From positions 630,001 through 662,000 of the forward strand of contig MKSO01000001.1 of assembly GCA_001897305.1 (NCBI GenBank): DNA of 32,000 bases, read 5' to 3'. Source of the DNA: Candidatus Saccharimonadota bacterium. GTDB lineage: Bacteria > Patescibacteriota > Saccharimonadia > Saccharimonadales > Saccharimonadaceae. Positions within the stretch are counted from its first letter, which is position 1. Every line of letters starts with the position of its first letter. The notes beneath the pieces were generated by a model. The model did not search any database and was not told the DNA's origin. It worked only from the letters and a program-made list of their open reading frames with translations. Of the stretch, positions 3,991 to 28,944 are shown piece after piece. The position numbers and the translations under genes are program-made.

Positions 3991-4019
3991 AAACCCGTCT
4001 TCGGACGGGTTTTTCTTTT
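3991..4019. terminator. Rho-independent terminator, better formed on the + strand
   Basis: AAACCCGTC-TTCG-GACGGGTTT followed by TTTTCTTTTG on the + strand. On the minus strand (downstream of trmD) the same stem is followed by only TTT. Confidence 0.7.
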
Positions 4020-4034
4020 GTTCACAATGATAGA

Positions 4035-4694
4035 TTATTCTTTAGCGGCTTTTATCGAGTGTTCTTCGCGCCACTGTGCAATTGCTGCGTGGTTGCCACT
4101 TAGGAGCACCTCGGGTACTGTCATGCCATTATAGTCTGCCGGTTTTGTGTATTGAGGGAACTCTAACGTTTCACCGTCAGAAAAGCTTTCAATCTCGGCA
4201 CTCGCCTCGCCACCTAGCACACCTGGAATAAGCCGTACGATGCTATCTATAATAGTCATAGCTGGTAGTTCACCACCCGTGAGTACATAATCACCTACAC
4301 TTAACTGCTCATCCACCAGGCTGACAATCCGCTCGTCATAGCCTTCGTAGCGGCCACAAATAAAGATATACCCGTGGGCGTCATCGGCATACTGCTGAGC
4401 CGTGGCCTGCTTCCAGCGTTGCCCTCGCGGTGTCATCAGGAGTACTTTTGCGGTTGGGTCTTTTTCCTTAGCTGCCGCCACAGCAGCAAATAATGGCTCC
4501 GGCTTCAATAACATGCCGTCACCCCCACCGTATGGCGTGTCATCAACTTGCTTTCGCGGGCCAATCCCAAAGTCTCGCAAATTAACCAAGCCAAATTCAA
4601 CAGCCCCTTCTTTCTGGGCCTTCCACATCATCGAAGTATTGAATACCCCTTCGAACATTTCCGGAAACAGGGTTATGACTTGGATTTTTTTCAT
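4035..4694 (-). CDS. trmD: tRNA (guanine37-N1)-methyltransferase
   Basis: MKKIQVITLFPEMFEGVF, DDTPYGGGDGMLLKPEP and YVLTGGELPAM are hallmark TrmD motifs. Length 219 aa. Confidence 0.95.
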   Translation of the reverse strand: MKKIQVITLFPEMFEGVFNTSMMWKAQKEGAVEFGLVNLRDFGIGPRKQVDDTPYGGGDGMLLKPEPLFAAVAAAKEKDPTAKVLLMTPRGQRWKQATAQQYADDAHGYIFICGRYEGYDERIVSLVDEQLSVGDYVLTGGELPAMTIIDSIVRLIPGVLGGEASAEIESFSDGETLEFPQYTKPADYNGMTVPEVLLSGNHAAIAQWREEHSIKAAKE

Positions 4695-4725
4695 CTGTAC
4701 TAGTGTACTTCATTTTAGCTTCAGA

Positions 4726-4755
4726 AACAAAAAGACACCCCTAAAGGTGTCTTTT
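4726..4755 (-). terminator. Terminator after the KH-protein gene
   Basis: AAAGACACC (4731-4739) pairs with GGTGTCTTT (4746-4754) around a 6-nt loop. On the minus strand the stem is followed by TTTTTGTTT. Confidence 0.65.
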
Positions 4756-4843
4756 ATACACATAAGCTCTCAACAAATGTGGTGATTTGTCGCTCGCATG
4801 AGCTGATCTCGCAGTTCAAAGATGTTTGTTGAACTGCTTGTGA

Positions 4844-5254
4844 TTATATATCAAGATCGTCGAGTTCTGCAAGCTCTGCGCGAGTCTTTTTTGTGTAGTC
4901 TGAAGTGTTGTCCACAGATTCATCTGTTGAAGTTTCCACAGTCTCGACAGACTCGTTAGAAGATGATGAAGGTGTATCGTCGCTTGAATAGGTTGCGCCG
5001 GTTTGTCCATCGTTATTTACAATCTTTAAATTGTAGCGAGCATCGTTCTTAGTACCGAGTGCGCGCAGCAATGTACGCAGGCTTTGGGCCGTAACGCCAC
5101 GCTTTCCAATAACCCGTCCAAGATCATCTGGGTTAACAGTAAGTGTCAAAAGTACACCTTTTTCGTCGATAATTCGCTCGACAACAACATCGTCGGGGTT
5201 CCCAACGACTGATTTTACGATATATTCTATGAACTGCTGGTCTATGGTCGACAT
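4844..5254 (-). CDS. KH-domain RNA-binding protein (YlqC/KhpA-like) with acidic C-terminal tail
   Basis: VVERIIDEKGVLLTLTVNPDDLGRVIGKRGVTAQSLRTLL contains the KH GxxG loop. GGAGGAGGG lies just upstream of ATG 5254. The position near rpsP and trmD is typical. Confidence 0.85.
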   Translation of the reverse strand: MSTIDQQFIEYIVKSVVGNPDDVVVERIIDEKGVLLTLTVNPDDLGRVIGKRGVTAQSLRTLLRALGTKNDARYNLKIVNNDGQTGATYSSDDTPSSSSNESVETVETSTDESVDNTSDYTKKTRAELAELDDLDI

Positions 5255-5292
5255 ATGCCCTCCTCCGGTCTCTGTCAATGTATCGTACCTTT

Positions 5293-5301
5293 ATTGTAGC
5301 A
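5293..5301 (-). promoter_or_regulatory. Extended -10 (TGcTACAAT) for the KH-protein gene
   Basis: Minus strand reads TGCTACAAT 38 nt upstream of ATG 5254. The -35 is weak. Confidence 0.45.
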
Positions 5302-5359
5302 TAGGCATTTCAGTTCTATGGAATATGCTTATGTTAAAATGGGGCGTATGGTATGTATA

Positions 5360-5387
5360 TTGACTTTTTTATATTTTGTGATATAAT
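5360..5387 (+). promoter_or_regulatory. Near-consensus promoter of GC-rich cassette 1
   Basis: TTGACT (5360-5365), 16-nt spacer, extended -10 TGaTATAAT (5379-5387). Confidence 0.7.
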
Positions 5388-5463
5388 GTAATCCACATTG
5401 ACTCCCGAGCCTATTGAGAGACAATGTAGCACACCCTGTCAGTACACTACCGGAAGGCCTATT

Positions 5464-5994
5464 TTGTCCAACACCGAAGGCTACACCCAGCGTACGAGCT
5501 ACGACCCCCGGACGATCCGACGCATCGCGAACCGCGCCAAGAACCTCATCCAGAAGTCCATCGAGTGCGACGCGACCATCACGCTCTTGGCGACGACGCT
5601 GATCGACGACTTCGTCGACCTGGTCGGAAACCGCCCCGGCACCCCTCCGAAGGTGCTCATCTCGGAAGCTCGTTCGATCTCCGAACCCCGTGGTATCAAG
5701 CCCACCCACCAGCATGAAGCCGGCGCCGGCCTCGGCGAGATCGCCCTCGAGCAGTCGTTCGAAGTCGAGCTCGGCAAGATCACCTTCCCGGAAGCGCGCC
5801 AGCGGATCAACCGCAAGATCCGCGAGCGCCTCGCGAACTACCGCCGCGAGGAAGCCAGCAAGCGGAGCGAAGCCCGCATCGGCCGACCGTCGATCCCCAT
5901 CAGCATCGACACGAACTCGCAGGGCGGTTCAACCCGTTCGCGCAAGCAGCCCTACAAGCGGCCCAACCCGCAGCGGCGGCGCAAGGCGGCCTGA
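5464..5994 (+). CDS. GC-rich ORFan protein A (176 aa, basic C-terminal tail), function unknown
   Basis: Strong G/C third-position periodicity in this frame only: 37 of the first 40 codons end in G/C by hand count. GGAAGG lies 6 nt before TTG 5464. TGA stop at 5992-5994, and promoter and terminator have the same polarity. The frame has no ATG; the alternative start is TTG 5398. Confidence 0.7.
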   Translation: MSNTEGYTQRTSYDPRTIRRIANRAKNLIQKSIECDATITLLATTLIDDFVDLVGNRPGTPPKVLISEARSISEPRGIKPTHQHEAGAGLGEIALEQSFEVELGKITFPEARQRINRKIRERLANYRREEASKRSEARIGRPSIPISIDTNSQGGSTRSRKQPYKRPNPQRRRKAA

Positions 5995-6040
5995 GTACAC
6001 ACCTGACAGGGAACGCCCAACCCACAAGGTTGGACGACCA

Positions 6041-6078
6041 CCCCCGGATCACCATATCCGGGGGCTTCCCTCTTTTTT
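6041..6078 (+). terminator. GC-rich terminator of cassette 1
   Basis: Perfect 9-bp stem CCCCCGGAT (6041-6049) / ATCCGGGGG (6056-6064), then CTTCCCTCTTTTTT. Confidence 0.65.
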
Positions 6079-6087
6079 GGAGCATTT

Positions 6088-6117
6088 AAAAAATCCCGCC
6101 TGTACGACGGGATTTTT
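6088..6117. terminator. Bidirectional terminator, serves rpsP on the minus strand
   Basis: AAAAATCCCG (6089-6098) pairs with CGGGATTTTT (6108-6117). A-run and T-run flank the stem. It lies 16 nt downstream of the rpsP stop. Confidence 0.7.
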
Positions 6118-6132
6118 AGTAACTATGCTTGA

Positions 6133-6513
6133 TTATTCAGCAGCTTCGGTTGGTGCTTCAGCTGGAGTTTCAGCAACCTCTTCAGGAGCTTCTTCTTTTG
6201 GCTGGTTCTTGCGAAGTTTTTCTGGGTTACGGAGGGCCTTTTGCTTGTCGCTGGTTGCTTCTTTTACCCACTTAGGAAGCTTTACGCCAGCTTCTTTAAG
6301 GAGTTTAGCCACACGAGGGGTTGGCTGGGCACCGTTATCGAGATACTTTTGAGCAGCTTCAACCTGAATGTTAGCGTCTTTAGTGTGCGGATTGTAGCTC
6401 CCTACATACGCGACAACACGACCGCTTGATGGGTGGCGTTGAGATTCTTGTACGGCGAGGCGGTAGGTTGGGTAGCCGGCACGACCGATACGTTGCAAAC
6501 GAATTGCGAGCAT
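6133..6513 (-). CDS. rpsP: 30S ribosomal protein S16 with Glu/Ala/Pro-rich C-terminal extension
   Basis: MLAIRLQRIGRAGYPTYRLAVQESQRHPSSGRVVAYVGSYNP is canonical bS16. AAAGGAAG Shine-Dalgarno upstream. Confidence 0.95.
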   Translation of the reverse strand: MLAIRLQRIGRAGYPTYRLAVQESQRHPSSGRVVAYVGSYNPHTKDANIQVEAAQKYLDNGAQPTPRVAKLLKEAGVKLPKWVKEATSDKQKALRNPEKLRKNQPKEEAPEEVAETPAEAPTEAAE

Positions 6514-6579
6514 AGTTTAATTAACTTCCTTTAACTCTTTAGTCTATTAACGAATAGCTTTTTATTAAATTCTCTGGCT

Positions 6580-6608
6580 ATTTTACACGTTTTATCTCTG
6601 TAAGTCAA
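6580..6608 (-). promoter_or_regulatory. rpsP promoter
   Basis: Minus strand TTGACT (6603-6608), 17-nt spacer, TAAAAT (6580-6585). Confidence 0.55.
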
Positions 6609-6613
6609 GGACT

Positions 6614-7594
6614 CTATGAATCGCTTCCGAACTGGAACACTCCGTTTTGTGCGTCCGATAGCGAAAACCATGTTCCACTCGCAAGACCAAGCTGTTGGTA
6701 GTTAGAAGGATTAGTATAAAAGACCTCAATAGACTTCGTGTCTGTATTCTTCGTCTTTACGAACGATACTTCTTGACGCCCATCGCCATTCACGTCAACC
6801 GACGAGAATACGCCGTTTTTTGCATCAGATAATTGGTAAAAGGTTGGCGTAGCAATGACAAGTTGAGACGAAGGCGTGCCAGATACTGAAGTATTATTTT
6901 GACTTGCTTGGAAGAACTCGATCTTTCCCGTGCCCGTCGCTTGCTTCTTAATGAAAGTCATTGCATTGTAGCGGGTTGCAAGAATCCCGTTACTACCAAC
7001 CGCATCATTCGCTTCTTGTGAGCCAAATGGCGTTGTTGTGGCATAATTGTTTGAATTGATACCTCGATCGCCACTTGCGCTCTGAGCATATGTTTTATCG
7101 CCGCTAAAACCAGTCGTCATGAATACACGCGGGAATCCATTCTGAGAGCCACTAATCGTAATTGGACGACTGTCGCTTTGTTTATACTTGTTGCAGACAT
7201 ACTCGCCTCCCAAGTAGCTACTATAAGCAGCGTGCATACCAGAAGTATAGCCACTGCTTGCCGTTGCCGAGTGAACTTCCAAATAGCCCGAACCAGTGTT
7301 ACATACTTTTATGAAATAGAGGTCGCGCCCGACAACTTGCCAGTAGCCGTTATCGGCATCAGCCGTGCTGAACCATGTTGCGGTATGCAGATCCGACGAT
7401 TTGTAATTACTTGCTTTTGTTGCGGTATGGAGCTCAACTTTGCCGCTACCTGTATTTTTTGTCTTAACAAAAAAGAGCGTCTCGGTGTCAGGACCGACCG
7501 CACCAGCGTTAGTAGTTGGTATAAAATTTACCCCTAGGATAGTGATACCAAAAAGGAGAATGAATCCTAAGACACTTTTTGGAAAATATTTCAT
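6614..7594 (-). CDS. Secreted repeat protein (FG-GAP / beta-propeller-like repeats)
   Basis: N-terminal signal-like helix FPKSVLGFILLFGITILGV. Four or more copies of the repeat F[VI]K..NTG[ST]GK.E.H.A....Y..., plus a DVNGDGRQE calcium-loop-like motif. GAGAGG Shine-Dalgarno upstream. Confidence 0.7.
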   Translation of the reverse strand: MKYFPKSVLGFILLFGITILGVNFIPTTNAGAVGPDTETLFFVKTKNTGSGKVELHTATKASNYKSSDLHTATWFSTADADNGYWQVVGRDLYFIKVCNTGSGYLEVHSATASSGYTSGMHAAYSSYLGGEYVCNKYKQSDSRPITISGSQNGFPRVFMTTGFSGDKTYAQSASGDRGINSNNYATTTPFGSQEANDAVGSNGILATRYNAMTFIKKQATGTGKIEFFQASQNNTSVSGTPSSQLVIATPTFYQLSDAKNGVFSSVDVNGDGRQEVSFVKTKNTDTKSIEVFYTNPSNYQQLGLASGTWFSLSDAQNGVFQFGSDS

Positions 7595-26801: not shown

Positions 26802-26830
26802 TTGACTTTCTTATACATAAGTGCTATAAT
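26802..26830 (+). promoter_or_regulatory. Near-consensus promoter of GC-rich cassette 2
   Basis: TTGACT (26802-26807), 17-nt spacer, extended -10 TGcTATAAT (26822-26830). Confidence 0.7.
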
Positions 26831-26928
26831 ATATGCTACAAAGAACTTTGTTGCAGTGTAATTGGCACATGCCGCCCACTCCAAAGTTCCTTGGGAACTT
26901 TGGACAAATCGAGAGGAAACATAAGAAA

Positions 26929-27408
26929 ATGAGCAATGGATTCATCATCCCCGGTTCTGTCGCATCGACCAACACCACCCTCGAGGCGCACCGCGCCAAG
27001 AAGAAGGAGTTCGTCGACCTATTCACCGAGCTGTTCGCGGACCTGAAGGAAGGCGACTTCTTCCCCGGCCTCGCGAAGACGATCACCGTCACCCAGCAGT
27101 CCCACCCGCAGGACTTCCAGCTCCAGCCGGTCGCCGGCATCCAGATGGAAGCCGTGCTGTCGGCGCCGAAGCTGCAGCCGAACCTCGACCTGATCGTCTA
27201 CCGGACGACGTTTGACCGCGAGGTCGCCTTCGGCCTGTGGAACGGGCAGTACGTCGAGAAGGCAACCTGCATCATCGTGCGACCCCTGCGGTTCGCCGAG
27301 ATGACGCTGCCCGACGACATCCACGCCGATGCCAGCCTGTGCGAACAGGCGTACCAGGGCGTGCAGAGCATCGCGGACCCGCTCATCCGGCTCGTCGCCT
27401 CTCGCTGA
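26929..27408 (+). CDS. GC-rich ORFan protein B (159 aa), function unknown
   Basis: GAGAGGA lies about 11 nt upstream of ATG 26929. GC3 periodicity: 34 of the first 40 codons end in G/C by hand count. The track start ATG 26833 lies 2 nt after the -10 box, so it is not transcribed from that promoter. TGA stop, then a GC hairpin. Confidence 0.75.
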   Translation: MSNGFIIPGSVASTNTTLEAHRAKKKEFVDLFTELFADLKEGDFFPGLAKTITVTQQSHPQDFQLQPVAGIQMEAVLSAPKLQPNLDLIVYRTTFDREVAFGLWNGQYVEKATCIIVRPLRFAEMTLPDDIHADASLCEQAYQGVQSIADPLIRLVASR

Positions 27409-27421
27409 TCCCGTCCAAAGT

Positions 27422-27460
27422 GCCGGTCATCCCTTACGGGGTGGCCGGCGCTTCATTTTT
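27422..27460 (+). terminator. GC-rich terminator of cassette 2
   Basis: GCCGGTCATCCC-TTAC-GGGGTGGCCGGC (12 bp including 2 G:U) followed by GCTTCATTTTT. Confidence 0.7.
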
Positions 27461-27486
27461 ACAAAGTTTTTGTTGAATGCTATGAT
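27458..27486 (+). promoter_or_regulatory. Promoter of the S51 peptidase gene
   Basis: TTTACA (27458-27463), 17-nt spacer, TGcTATGAT (27478-27486). Confidence 0.55.
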
Positions 27487-27507
27487 TTGGCAAAGGAGTG
27501 TCTAAAA

Positions 27508-28275
27508 GTGACAAAAATTATCGCGATTGGCGGCGGTGAAGTCGGAGAGCCTAAAGAAGACGGCGACGGCTTTTACCCTGTCGAGACAACAGCTATTGAT
27601 CAAGAAATTGTACGACTCACCGAGAAGAAGAACCCTCGGCTCCTTTTTATTCCAACAGCTAGCTATGATTCGGTAGATTATTACGAAAGAATAAAAAGGC
27701 ACTTTACACACATTGGGTTTAGCGAGGTTAACGCGCTGTATTTATCCGAAAAAAGCCTCACGAAAGAACAAATCAAACATGCTATTTTGTCCCACGATGC
27801 TATTTATGTTGGCGGTGGCAATACCCTGCGCATGATGAATGTCTGGAAAAAGCTTGGTGTCGATAAGCTACTTAAGCAAGCCTTAGATAACAATATCGTA
27901 CTAGCAGGTTTGAGTGCTGGTTCGATATGCTGGTTTAGCTGTGGCAACTCTGATTCCCGCAAGTTTACCAGCGGAAGTAGTAAGCTCATAAAGGTAACCG
28001 GGCTGGGTTTTATTGATGCGTTGCACTGCCCCCACTACGACGCCGAGCCATTTCGACAAGACGACCTAAAACGAATGATGAAAACTACCCCCGGGGCGGC
28101 AATCGCTCTCGATAACTGCGCCGCTCTTGAAGTTGTCGATGGTAAGTACAGGATTGTTACCAGTAAGTCGGGTGCGAAAGCCAGGAAAACATATTGGCGC
28201 AGGGGCGAATATGTTGTGGAGGAAATTAAGGCTGAGGCTAGCTATAAAAATTTAAACGAACTACTACAAAAATAG
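27508..28275 (+). CDS. pepE: Peptidase S51 family (dipeptidase E / cyanophycinase-like)
   Basis: IIAIGGGE, LLFIPTAS, YVGGGNTLRM and AGLSAGSICWF (Ser nucleophile region). GTG 27508 with AAGGAG 9 nt upstream. Native-type composition. Confidence 0.8.
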   Translation: MTKIIAIGGGEVGEPKEDGDGFYPVETTAIDQEIVRLTEKKNPRLLFIPTASYDSVDYYERIKRHFTHIGFSEVNALYLSEKSLTKEQIKHAILSHDAIYVGGGNTLRMMNVWKKLGVDKLLKQALDNNIVLAGLSAGSICWFSCGNSDSRKFTSGSSKLIKVTGLGFIDALHCPHYDAEPFRQDDLKRMMKTTPGAAIALDNCAALEVVDGKYRIVTSKSGAKARKTYWRRGEYVVEEIKAEASYKNLNELLQK

Positions 28276-28296
28276 TAACCCTGCTACCCATTCTTG

Positions 28297-28351
28297 AAAA
28301 TGGAAAGGGCCCGCACTGACGCGGTCCCTTTCGGGTGCGTCGGCGCGGGCC
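28297..28351 (-). terminator. GC-rich composite terminator of cassette 3
   Basis: Minus strand GGCCCGC..GACGC.CCC-GAAA-GGG..GCGTC..GCGGGCC gives nested 7, 5 and 3 bp stems with a GAAA tetraloop, followed by CTTTCCATTTT. Confidence 0.65.
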
Positions 28352-28361
28352 GTGACTTGCA

Positions 28362-28865
28362 TTACGTCCAGTAGTCCGGCTCCGTCGAGTAGCTCGATTC
28401 GGCTTCTTCTCGGATCCGGGCTTCGTCGTAGCGTCCCTCGCTTCGGAGTTCGTCGATGGACATGCCGTTGAGACGACGCTGTTCGGCATCACGGTCGACT
28501 CGCTCCTTGGTGGCCTGGGCGGCCTCCTCCTCGAGCGTCTTCCGCGTCTCCACCGCATGGTCGAGACGCTCCTTGAAGTCGGGAAGAAGAGTGACCTCTT
28601 CCCGAACGCCGACCTCTTGGACCATGACGATGACGCCGTGGTGCGGGTAGAACTGGTTGAGGCCCTGCTCGAGGATCTCGATGGCAGTGGTGCCGAGCGA
28701 CGCGGAGCGGATGCTCAGCGTGATACCCGGGATGTTCTCGCCCTTGCCGATGGCAGAGGGCTCGTTGACGTCCAGGACTGCCTGAACGATGACCTCGAAC
28801 CTCTCCTTAAAAGTTTCGATGGAGAGGTTGGCAGGTGCATACAGTGTTGCCCCGATGTACGACAT
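28362..28865 (-). CDS. GC-rich ORFan protein C (167 aa, charged C-terminal helix), function unknown
   Basis: ATG 28865, TAA stop at 28362-28364. G/C-ending codons dominate (29 of the first 40, higher further in). Promoter and terminator have the same polarity, and the opposite-strand ORFs give low-complexity junk. Confidence 0.75.
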   Translation of the reverse strand: MSYIGATLYAPANLSIETFKERFEVIVQAVLDVNEPSAIGKGENIPGITLSIRSASLGTTAIEILEQGLNQFYPHHGVIVMVQEVGVREEVTLLPDFKERLDHAVETRKTLEEEAAQATKERVDRDAEQRRLNGMSIDELRSEGRYDEARIREEAESSYSTEPDYWT

Positions 28866-28915
28866 GATGGTAGGTTCTTTCTCTCGATGTGACGTGCGAA
28901 CGCTAAGTCTTATAT

Positions 28916-28944
28916 ATTATAGCATAAAATTTAACATTACGCAA
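28916..28944 (-). promoter_or_regulatory. Promoter of GC-rich cassette 3
   Basis: Minus strand TTGCGT (28939-28944), 17-nt spacer, extended -10 TGcTATAAT (28916-28924). Confidence 0.6.

Follow-up and report, generated by a model that had tools for sequence, protein, structure and literature searches.

Phage morons are autonomous transcription units that lie between phage genes (PMC3594210). In bacteria, GC-biased gene conversion (gBGC) is associated with a higher G+C content of recombining genes, most of all at third codon positions (Lassalle et al. 2015; PMC4450053). Saccharibacteria, which grow on Actinobacteria, are naturally competent (PMC10633639). The T4SS (type IV secretion system) that Saccharimonadia possess is required for growth as epibionts, in most cases has no relaxase, and has no known substrates (PMC12102498). 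A literature search returned no account of GC-rich cassettes, whether from Saccharibacteria or from other CPR bacteria. One such cassette is described here from a window of Saccharibacteria DNA (the whole 32,000-nucleotide stretch that was analysed), together with two sister cassettes.

The cassette occupies 5360–6078 on the forward strand and consists of a promoter, a leader, a Shine-Dalgarno (SD) sequence and TTG start, a 176-codon open reading frame (c1), and a hairpin terminator (Table 1). It is a genuine, autonomous gene cassette. The original prediction described a self-contained forward-strand unit, an ORFan of atypical G+C and GC3 between rpsP and a KH-protein gene, and that description stands. 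The promoter, SD sequence, TTG at 5464, ORF to the TGA at 5994, hairpin, and T-run could each be read in the sequence. The hand counts were exact (37/60 G+C in 5521–5580; 18/60 in 5281–5340), and 37 of the first 40 codons do end in G or C in a frame without ATG. Positions 5464 and 5398 had both been named as candidate starts. Homologues share an N-terminus of the form MSNTE, MSKTE, or MSHTD, begin with TTG, GTG, or ATG at the equivalent place, and keep GGAAGG or GAAAGG as the SD sequence, so 5464, and not 5398, is the start.

Table 1. Coordinates of the cassette, its edges, and its sister cassettes; regulatory and RNA elements are predicted.
Feature	Position	Strand	Details
KH (khpA) gene extended -10, TGC-TACAAT	5293–5301	-	Divergent from cassette promoter
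Cassette promoter, TTGACT-16 nt-TG-n-TATAAT	5360–5387	+	-35 at 5360–5365; 11/12 consensus match, with TG
5′-terminal stem-loop of predicted mRNA	5395–5427	+	MFE and centroid folds
Long-range helix, 5′ arm CCCTGTCAG	5434–5442	+	Pairs with 6003–6011 in MFE and centroid folds
Shine-Dalgarno GGAAGG	5452–5457	+	6 nt ahead of TTG 5464
ORF c1, 176 aa	5464–5994	+	TTG start; TGA 5992–5994; product identical to OJU97161.1
Long-range helix, 3′ arm CTGACAGGG	6003–6011	+	8 nt past stop codon
3′ UTR hairpin, CCAACC/GGTTGG	6017–6033	+	Predicted fold
Intrinsic terminator	6041–6078	+	9-bp G+C-rich hairpin, arms CCCCCGGAT (6041–6049) and ATCCGGGGG (6056–6064), followed by CTTCCCTC and by T6 at 6073–6078
rpsP terminator hairpin, ATCCCG...CGGGAT	6093–6113	-	Right edge of cassette
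Sister cassette c2	26803–27468	+	TTGACT-17-TATAAT promoter; leader with 10-bp hairpin; 16-bp terminator hairpin
c2 ORF, 159 aa	26929–27408	+	GC3 0.91
Sister cassette c3	28290–28925	-	TGC-TATAAT promoter; 5′/3′ UTR closing helix; terminator
c3 ORF, 167 aa	28362–28865	-	GC3 0.79

The KH protein matches Pfam KH_KhpA-B (9e-22). Its gene and rpsP are normally adjacent, as had been stated, with a gap of 90–230 nt in most of 80 related genomes. Their supposed co-transcription was not borne out in this clade, since rpsP is followed by a terminator of its own and the KH gene is preceded by a separate extended -10, also in the absence of a cassette. The khpA -10 (attgtagca) stands at the same position in every relative shown, whether or not it carries a cassette, and relatives have an equivalent hairpin downstream of rpsP. 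The cassette promoter is the top promoter-like site within 4000–7000 and is predicted to be strong, of the sigma-70 type, and equipped with an extended -10. A TTGAC-type promoter is similarly placed ahead of the cassette in most cassette-bearing relatives. One relative (L010) retains an ORF-less remnant in which such a promoter and GGAAGG are fused straight to the terminator tail.

The predicted transcript is ~690 nt long, G+C-rich, and strongly structured. Its 5′ stem-loop is retained, with some two-sided changes, in the consensus fold of seven family members. In the predicted fold, a 9-bp helix between leader and 3′ UTR closes the c1 mRNA, enclosing the SD sequence and the ORF. The 7-bp core of this helix is unchanged in 7/7 family members while the remaining leader differs, and the motif pair was found around c1-family ORFs only. 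The 3′ UTR hairpin is present at the equivalent position in every member with a differing stem sequence, which suggests conservation of structure, not sequence. The consensus fold of the terminator has three two-sided changes (loop-closing pair). The duplex energy between the 5′ and 3′ UTRs is significant against shuffles in c2, c1, L004, L006, and L050 and not in L003, L005, or L027, so end-closure is not universal.

In AT-richer genomes, islands of high G+C often prove to be structural RNAs; the whole c1 transcript also shows better folding than its dinucleotide shuffles (z -5.1; 20 shuffles) and has conserved UTR elements. A structured non-coding RNA with an incidental ORF is nevertheless scarcely credible here. 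At the Rfam gathering threshold, four tRNAs were the sole matches in the window and no RNA family matched the cassette. The sequence has a strong three-base periodicity in which GC3 greatly exceeds GC1 and GC2, dN is below dS, the protein model is confident, and the ORF stays open and protein-alignable across the family down to 27% identity. Predicted folding energies lie between -0.37 and -0.42 kcal/nt in the cassette ORFs and between -0.23 and -0.31 in native genes. Shuffling synonymous codons left the folding of the ORF no weaker in c1 (z -0.29) or c2 (z -0.43); the value for c3 was z -2.5. These values give no sign of a particular fold under selection within the ORF of c1 or c2, and the idea was rejected for both.

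ORF c1 is a real gene, as judged by codon periodicity, by selection, and by its protein model. Against allele L001, pS is 0.164, pN is 0.077, and dN/dS is 0.44. The AlphaFold model (pLDDT 79.5; pTM 0.65) has five helices and predicts a soluble five-helix bundle (residues ~15–137) followed by a disordered Arg/Lys-rich tail ending RRRKAA. The basic tail that had hinted at nucleic-acid binding in the original prediction is real: net charge is +9 over the final 20 residues, and mean pLDDT is 51–70 across residues 131–176. As predicted, no family was recognized. Searches of Pfam, PHROGs, PADLOC, NCBIfam, and a PDB sequence profile gave no match, and Foldseek of the model against PDB and BFVD gave nothing significant, the best being generic helical bundles (E ≥ 0.04).

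The base composition of c1 (GC 0.657; GC1/2/3 0.59/0.51/0.876) departs from that of its surroundings. Overall GC is 0.66 versus 0.45–0.51 in flanking genes, and GC3 is 0.88 versus 0.40–0.50 in rpsP, the KH gene, trmD, rnc, an MMPL gene, and a pepE-like gene. The scans confirmed the predicted step against the flanks, and its placement at the coding start rather than at the promoter proved correct (promoter 17% GC; leader 50%). The cassette promoter and outer flanks are AT-rich, and so sharp and ORF-limited a step has the classical look of foreign DNA. With a 150-nt sliding window (window mean 0.467; sd 0.06), only three long segments in the 32 kb have GC ≥ 0.58: 5422–6120, 26924–27487, and 28269–28848. 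Among the sister cassettes, c2 has only two homologues found and an AlphaFold model of pLDDT 34; c3 has only near-identical copies elsewhere.

The GC excess is mostly synonymous, and amino-acid composition is native-like, across 21 pooled GC-rich ORFs. The shift from native to cassette genes is +0.35 for GC3, +0.05 for GC2, and +0.02 for GC1; the raised GC2 of c1 itself (0.51) arises because the protein is Arg-rich. FYMINK and GARP fractions are 0.220 and 0.283 in the pooled ORFs and 0.239 and 0.259 in native genes, versus 0.11–0.15 and 0.35–0.39 in small ORFs of Rhodococcus and Clavibacter (p 9e-7, 4e-5). Pooled GC1 is 0.60 versus 0.64–0.73 in five true high-GC references, a small set of five plasmid regions with heuristic ORF calls. 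Over five reference regions, relative synonymous codon usage correlates best with Actinobacteria (r 0.95–0.96; closest Clavibacter and Rhodococcus) and less with Cupriavidus, Pseudomonas, and Thermus (r 0.82–0.89). An actinobacterial-type codon preference is also expected from an actinobacterial donor.

About ten homologues of c1 were found, and every one with a readable contig lies at the rpsP|khpA junction of Saccharibacteria, with khpA and/or rpsP flanks. Scanning all 1.84 billion representatives with HMMER yielded 7 hits, as did a profile search of 5.8 billion clusters; neither protein collection contained a c1 homologue outside Saccharibacteria. tblastn of c1, c2, and c3 against GenBank phages and PLSDB plasmids gave nothing, and IMG/VR scans for c2 and c3 gave no match. 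From these searches the c1 family appears to be tiny, very fast-evolving, and confined to Saccharibacteria.

The original prediction of a recent insertion was overturned by these homologues. At least six further loci or species (L004, L007, L008, L083, L085, and L090) have c1 homologues of matching composition in this junction, and c1 orthologues keep GC3 at 0.83–0.93. Between the window and L004, L007, and L008, whose loci also include the flanking genes, pS is 0.53–0.68 for rpsP and khpA and 0.76–0.83 for trmD, values that place the housekeeping genes near or at synonymous saturation. For c1 in the same comparisons, pN is 0.34–0.52, pS is at the codon-randomized ceiling (0.46–0.50 versus 0.53–0.54), and GC3 stays at 0.84–0.93. 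The GC excess has persisted across speciation. Given same-composition homologues and near-saturated housekeeping genes, the cassette is best regarded as an old resident of a sub-clade, in a place subject to cassette turnover.

Turnover is suggested by the varied contents of the junction. It is empty in most relatives. In the closest relatives the gap between rpsP and the KH gene widens to 580–1,090 nt, is GC-rich, and contains a high-GC3 ORF on the opposite strand. The nearest species (L003; rpsP 96% amino acid identity) has a different GC-rich basic ORF there, and a second family at the junction ranges in GC3 from 0.89 down to 0.45. These patterns, together with the L010 remnant, mark the rpsP|khpA junction as a cassette hot spot. 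Profile comparisons of the c1 family with other junction ORFs were collinear and non-significant (L003, P 0.09; L015, P 0.04; L065, P 0.006), and homology of those ORFs to the c1 family is possible.

Artefactual fusion of GC-rich foreign DNA to a Saccharibacteria contig, in assembly or binning, was considered and carries almost no weight. Metagenome assemblies do make such joins. Contig L089 is a true chimera of an unrelated 5′ part and a c1 3′ half, and L004 was binned as 'Dongiaceae' despite Saccharibacteria rpsP and khpA. The identical protein and junction, however, recur in independent NCBI, JGI, ENA, and Logan assemblies, with contigs of 0.9–1.3 Mb; short contigs span both junctions; and homologous cassettes with the same architecture and junction occur in several species. 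An assembly artefact is effectively refuted. A chimeric contig also led to the rejection of protein P0011 as an N-terminal variant.

Divergent c1 alleles are swapped by homologous recombination within near-identical flanks. Between the window and L001 the flanks differ at 8/764 nt and the ORF at 52/531 nt, and proteins P0007 and P0009 are mosaics of both alleles. The close match of the cassette promoter and 3′ UTR to those of L008, despite divergent ORFs, also speaks for recombination. Mutagenesis by a DGR-type element was ruled out, since the allele differences are not adenine-specific. Parsimony polarization of these differences gave 24 S>W versus 6 W>S changes, counts biased towards S>W because the only usable outgroup is itself GC-rich (GC3 0.91) and nearly saturated.

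Under ordinary lateral transfer the ORF, if not the whole cassette, would derive from an organism of high GC, with the actinobacterial host or one of its mobile elements as the most plausible source. Competent Saccharibacteria would take it up, spread it by recombination through the khpA and rpsP flanks, and replace it too often for it to ameliorate. The sharp GC3 step at the ORF, the closeness of codon preferences to Clavibacter and Rhodococcus, natural competence, and growth on Actinobacteria (PMC10633639) all fit such a transfer. So does the patchy distribution, with a different ORF in the nearest species. The 31-nt cassette promoter is identical to that of the distinct species L008 and the 3′ UTR ~93% identical, while the ORFs share only 51% amino acid identity. 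Over c2 with its promoter and leader, pS between the window and L086 is 0.35, below the 0.83 of the adjacent MMPL gene, and the GC3 range of the second junction family resembles an amelioration series. Against these points, no donor homologue appeared in the protein, phage, or plasmid collections, nor an IMG/VR match for c2 or c3. After a recent transfer the donor should be detectable, and after an old one GC3 should have decayed, yet it stays at 0.83–0.93 in orthologues from species near or at synonymous saturation. Amino acid composition and GC1 are native-like, and amelioration cannot lower GC1 while GC3 stays high. No integrase or transposase domain was found in the 26 large ORFs of the window, the nearest tRNA lies 2.7 kb from the cassette, no direct repeat flanks it on reading its edges, and the surroundings are housekeeping genes. 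Lateral transfer is judged unlikely, though well short of negligible.

The combination of host-phylum codon usage with native-like amino acids, kept over speciation, could also be explained if the genes were directed at the host. They would carry actinobacterial codons because they are translated there, having reached the host either as DNA or as mRNA that is closed and protected by hairpins, for example through a relaxase-less T4SS; this is very improbable. Selection by the host translation apparatus would then hold GC3 near 0.9 in genes for Saccharibacteria-like proteins, much as phage genes adapt to host codon usage, and the chance of this is similarly slim. An actinobacterial sigma-A holoenzyme and ribosome could read the consensus promoter and SD sequence of the cassettes. 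The mRNA is predicted to be closed 5′ to 3′ and very stable, and the Saccharimonadia T4SS described above (PMC12102498) could offer an export route. There is, however, no evidence at all of nucleic-acid export, the codon resemblance comes from five reference regions, and the cassette promoters are of the ordinary Saccharibacteria type, like that of rpsP. We know of no bacterial epibiont that delivers genes or mRNA for translation in its host. In a milder form, a gene-scale GC drive, by conversion or selection, may act with a strength so far unseen in bacteria.

The preferred explanation, held tentatively and with a little less than even confidence, is an accessory locus that is resident, recombines and evolves fast, and at which synonymous sites are kept GC-rich in situ. 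The cassette would be an accessory or 'conflict' locus and no fresh import. Its synonymous sites might be kept rich in G and C by selection for a G+C-rich, nuclease-resistant, long-lived mRNA, or by gBGC at a hot spot of recombination. The protein would work through its helical domain and basic tail in the interaction of epibiont and host, possibly as an exported effector, or alternatively in nucleic-acid binding; by analogy, the tail may equally well bind nucleic acid as serve secretion. To our knowledge, gene-scale GC3 of 0.85–0.9 arising in situ is without precedent in bacteria whose genomes have 47% GC.

Saccharibacteria and other Patescibacteria live on host bacteria, and the molecules by which they act on these hosts are almost wholly unknown; the cassettes provide a recognizable class of candidates. 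As a group they are single-gene, self-expressed, fast-evolving, and multi-allelic, lie at fixed hot spots between housekeeping genes, and can be found by a GC3 scan alone. Genes of a 47% G+C genome that are kept at ~85–90% GC3 through speciation also pose a problem of genome evolution. Either an unsampled reservoir exists, or single genes are subject to a local force (mRNA selection, biased conversion, or decoding elsewhere) much stronger than is commonly supposed for bacteria.

Among known systems, laterally acquired ORFan islets and genomic islands that go on to ameliorate share with the cassettes atypical G+C and codon usage, an absence of known homologues, a lineage-restricted and patchy distribution, and a hot spot between conserved genes. 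The cassette differs in having no donor, mobility genes, or att-like repeats, in GC3 that is undecayed in orthologues at near-saturating divergence, and in an amino-acid composition like that of the recipient. Integron cassettes, too, are units with one ORF each, diverse and for the most part unknown in function, that are swapped at a fixed site in the chromosome. Here, however, each unit has its own promoter and terminator, and no attC-like site, integrase, attI, or array was found in the 32-kb window. The only inverted elements of the cassette are two 9-mers (5434–5442 and 6003–6011) and the terminator hairpin; the 9-mers are far shorter than an attC site and are conserved in one family only.

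T4SS substrates of the Agrobacterium VirB/D4 type carry positively charged C-terminal signals. The c1 product resembles such substrates as a small, fast-evolving, lineage-specific protein with a disordered, strongly basic C-terminus, and differs in that no T4SS gene lies in the window. The likeness to gBGC rests in the mosaic c1 alleles and in a shift whose size at GC3 greatly exceeds that at GC1 or GC2. Bacterial gBGC effects reportedly amount to a few percentage points, whereas the GC3 shift of ~0.4 here is limited to single small genes and lies far beyond that. To morons the cassette is alike as a single ORF with its own sigma-70 promoter and terminator, placed between genes that are adjacent elsewhere, with a composition unlike its neighbours and a patchy presence among relatives. 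Unlike morons, it sits in a cellular housekeeping region (rpsP, khpA, trmD, rnc, leuS, and ligA, among others) with no phage genes nearby, and c1 has no PHROG, GenBank-phage, or BFVD match, nor c2 or c3 an IMG/VR match. The same c1 family also occupies the same site across species, and the compositional oddity of such ORFs lies mostly at synonymous sites.

The GC-rich ORF between rpsP and the KH-protein gene khpA (c1) is a real protein-coding gene. Codon periodicity is strong, and the product is 100% identical to OJU97161.1 from Candidatus Saccharibacteria bacterium 47-87, a sequence found in assemblies from NCBI, JGI, ENA, and Logan, where its contigs reach 1.3 Mb. The window allele differs from that of locus L001 at 52 of 531 ORF positions (pS 0.164, pN 0.077, dN/dS 0.44). 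Homologues are alignable down to ~25% identity and share a conserved N-terminus, which fixes the start at 5464 and not at 5398, the alternative first offered. The c1 promoter is the top sigma-70-like site within 4000-7000. Promoter, Shine-Dalgarno sequence, start and stop codons, and hairpin with T-run are all present as first described, and recounts reproduced the G+C hand counts (37/60 and 18/60), the G or C ending of 37 of the first 40 codons, and the lack of ATG in the frame. GC and GC3 scans confirmed the proposed composition step: c1 has GC1/2/3 of 0.59/0.51/0.88 against GC3 of 0.40-0.50 in six adjoining genes, and across the 32-kb window G+C rises above 58% in just three long segments (c1's and two listed in the table). 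Feature coordinates are collected below.

Features of the window and of the neighboring junction in related loci
Feature	Coordinates	Strand	Details
c1 promoter	5360-5387	+	TTGACT 5360-5365, 16-nt spacer, TG-n-TATAAT; 11/12 with TG
c1 5'-terminal stem-loop	5395-5427	+	MFE and centroid
c1 closing helix, 9 bp	5434-5442 with 6003-6011	+	CCCTGTCAG with CTGACAGGG; encloses Shine-Dalgarno and ORF; MFE and centroid
c1 Shine-Dalgarno	5452-5457	+	GGAAGG, 6 nt 5' of TTG 5464
c1 ORF	5464-5994	+	TTG to TGA 5992-5994; 176-aa product
c1 terminator hairpin	6041-6064	+	CCCCCGGAT/ATCCGGGGG, then T6
Secreted-looking protein	6614-7594	-	326 aa
c2	26803-27468	+	TTGACT-17-TATAAT promoter; 159-aa ORFan, GC3 0.91; 16-bp terminator hairpin
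c2 near-repeat copies	26836-26852; 27463-27478		TACAAAG(AAC/TT)TTTGTTG
Segments >58% G+C	26924-27487; 28269-28848
c3	28290-28925	-	167-aa acidic ORFan, GC3 0.79; convergent on pepE/cyanophycinase-like gene
khpA|trmD GC-rich ORFs	L003 5076-5687; L016 4640-4909; L019 4585-4845; L027 4690-4938	opposite

Searches of c1 against Pfam, PHROGs, PADLOC, NCBIfam, PDB sequences, PDB folds, and viral folds gave nothing significant, and Rfam gave no match. AlphaFold predicts a confident five-helix bundle followed by a low-confidence basic tail (pLDDT 79.5, pTM 0.65). Alternative-frame and antisense ORFs over c1 (220, 128, and 105 aa; at 5690-6352 on the forward and 5329-5816 on the reverse strand) are the usual shadows of G+C-rich DNA and could mislead a gene caller. 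Housekeeping genes in the window are rpsP, khpA, trmD, rnc, a NUDIX gene, leuS, a Mur ligase, a class I tRNA synthetase, ligA, an M48 peptidase, LemA, an HtrA-like protease, an MMPL transporter, and a P-type ATPase; no mobility genes were found in the 32 kb. The secreted-looking 326-aa protein has native composition and no Pfam family, and a motif of the type F[VI]K[TK]KNTG[ST]GK[VI]E occurs in it four times. Chimeric assembly was excluded because independent short contigs span both c1 junctions.

c1 had been proposed as an insertion into the ribosomal cluster, and this is refuted by same-composition homologues at the same junction in relatives. Scanning 1.84 billion representative proteins in full with HMMER gave seven c1 matches, as did a profile search of 5.8 billion clusters. 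All readable contigs (L001, L002, L004, L007, L008, L083, L084, L085, and L090) have a common order: khpA start, khpA -10, cassette promoter, leader, ORF, structured 3' UTR, terminator, and rpsP terminator. The rpsP-khpA gap is 90-230 nt in most of 80 related genomes; in the closest relatives it is 580-1,090 nt, G+C-rich, and carries an opposite-strand high-GC3 ORF. Between the window and L004, L007, and L008, synonymous sites of housekeeping genes are saturated or nearly so (pS 0.53-0.68 for rpsP and khpA, 0.76-0.83 for trmD), yet the c1 orthologues there retain GC3 of 0.84-0.93. Their pN of 0.34-0.52 is 5-10 times the non-synonymous divergence of housekeeping genes, and their pS of 0.46-0.50 has reached the ceiling that their own codon usage imposes (0.53-0.54 for randomized codons). 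The c1 family is Saccharibacteria-only, fast-evolving, and fixed at a cassette hot spot, and its G+C excess is long-lived. The L004 contig (DATMTU010000052.1), filed under a "Dongiaceae bacterium" MAG, has Saccharibacteria rpsP, a c1 homologue, and a 90% identical khpA, and is probably mis-binned. P0011, a 97-aa c1 "variant," was rejected as spurious; it derives from a chimeric metagenome contig (L089, ENA, 668 nt) in which ~290 nt of unrelated DNA is fused to the c1 3' half at a short shared string.

The rpsP-khpA junction is a hot spot with cassette turnover. The nearest species (L003; amino acid identity 96% for rpsP, 93% for khpA, and 90% for trmD) has a different 126-aa GC-rich ORF there, and still other ORFs occur in L005, L006, L015, L050, L065, L072, L074, and L082. 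Five further species carry an opposite-strand 63-69-aa family (W..E..A[EQ]DY[LI]) with a full compositional gradient at one site (GC3 0.66 in L017, 0.51 in L020, 0.72 in L021, 0.89 in L027, and 0.45 in L030). TM7i (L009) has neither cassette promoter nor ORF. In L010 (3678-4000), the cassette promoter and GGAAGG run almost directly into a CTTCC...TTTT tail plus the rpsP terminator, and the ORF is missing; this remnant looks like a precise ORF deletion, or else a small RNA gene. The high-GC3 ORFs examined from the junction are nearly all net basic (+3 to +17 per 100 residues), the small-family member of L027 being the sole exception (-3); GC-rich ORFs of other sites are not basic. Profile comparisons of the c1 family with other junction ORFs were collinear and not significant, so extreme divergence is indistinguishable from replacement. 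At the next junction along, khpA|trmD, some relatives carry opposite-strand GC-rich ORFs, two of which are predicted to encode membrane proteins; the window's own gap (~150 nt) is empty.

Two sister GC-rich cassettes, c2 and c3, lie in the window. c2 has a perfect 10-bp hairpin in its leader and only two known homologues; c3 occurs elsewhere only as near-identical copies. Between the window and L086, c2 promoter, leader, and ORF are less diverged than the adjoining MMPL gene (pS 0.35, randomized 0.53 +/- 0.05, against a saturated 0.83). A near-repeat brackets c2, one copy at its transcription start and the other just past its terminator, within the likely promoter of the pepE-like gene; it may represent an operator common to both, the scar of an insertion, or a coincidence.

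The c1 alleles recombine. Between the window and L001, the khpA flank differs at 8 of 764 positions, cassette promoter and leader are virtually identical, the 3' UTR has three differences, and all 52 ORF differences fall within codons 5-153. Proteins P0007 and P0009 are mosaics of both alleles. Against L008, a separate species, the 31-nt promoter is identical and the 3' UTR ~93% identical, the ORFs share 51% amino acid identity, and the adjoining intergenic DNA is unalignable. Shared promoters and 3' UTRs with diverged ORFs, the mosaics, and c2 in L086 indicate that parts of cassettes pass from one lineage to another. For the phylum, natural competence has been documented (PMC10633639).

The c1 transcript, predicted as 5394-6078, folds in both MFE and centroid structures with a 5' stem-loop, a closing helix, a 3' UTR hairpin, and the terminator. 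Across the seven family members compared, the closing helix always has the same 7-bp core, while the remaining leader varies, and the motif pair is found around c1-family ORFs only; such invariant pairs offer no proof by covariation. For the 3' hairpin, the location is constant among family members and the stem sequence differs. The c3 5' end pairs with sequence right after the stop codon (MFE and centroid), UTR complementarity is strong in c2, and some other junction cassettes lack it. Folding energies are -0.37 to -0.42 kcal/nt for cassette ORFs and -0.23 to -0.31 for native genes. Folding of c1 and c2 was no weaker after synonymous codons were shuffled, so stability comes from composition and not from a particular fold.

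Pooled GC-rich ORFs (21-23, window and related loci) have GC1/GC2/GC3 of 0.60/0.45/0.81-0.82 against 0.58/0.39/0.47 in native genes. They prefer CTC about equally with CTG, GTC far over GTG, and CCC at least as much as CCG, and TCG is frequent. RSCU fits best to Clavibacter (r 0.955; 0.86 for G/C-ending codons alone) and Rhodococcus (0.946; 0.84), and less well to Cupriavidus, Pseudomonas, and Thermus. The main rival explanation, repeated lateral transfer out of a high-GC reservoir that has not been sampled, accounts for this actinobacterial codon dialect and the sharp composition step but leaves the missing donors, the native-like proteins, and the persistence of GC3 unexplained. FYMINK and GARP are 0.220 and 0.283 in the pooled ORFs and 0.239 and 0.259 in native genes of comparable size, with the caveat that small ORFans as a class may be compositionally odd; small ORFs of two actinobacterial references have 0.11-0.15 and 0.35-0.39 (Mann-Whitney p 9e-7, 4e-5). 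GC1 is 0.64-0.73 in five of five high-GC references, which are plasmid regions with heuristically called ORFs. c1 alone is Arg-rich (GC2 0.51). The amino acid composition of the pool is the recipient's, native-like across 21 such ORFs, and the c1 G+C excess lies at synonymous sites. Amelioration is unable to give native GC1 and amino acid usage while GC3 stays at 0.8-0.9. Native-like GC1 and amino acids, the lack of a found donor, and persistence over speciation point to a force acting in place on synonymous sites.

c1 may be a resident accessory or "conflict" locus. What holds its codons G/C-rich in situ would be either selection favoring a stable, structured mRNA or, at a recombination hot spot, conversion biased toward GC; for such conversion in bacteria, the direction of effect has been shown (PMC4450053). 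The protein, as modeled, might use its helical domain and basic tail to interact with the host or to bind nucleic acid. The tail, predicted disordered with net charge +9, would presumably fit a candidate T4SS signal. In this group the T4SS is essential and mostly lacks a relaxase, and no substrate of it is known (PMC12102498).

Literature searches on Saccharibacteria and other CPR bacteria turned up no account of such cassettes. Three of four tests applied for a laterally transferred island were negative for the c1 cassette. Its own promoter and the absence of attC and integrase set the unit apart from integron cassettes and rule out that identity. The unit is autonomous and moron-like, and the c1 gene within it is real; the phage moron (PMC3594210) is its closest counterpart in architecture, although no phage surrounds the c1 cassette. 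It belongs with the accessory ORFan cassettes already known from hot spots, and its unusual compositional behavior deserves follow-up.
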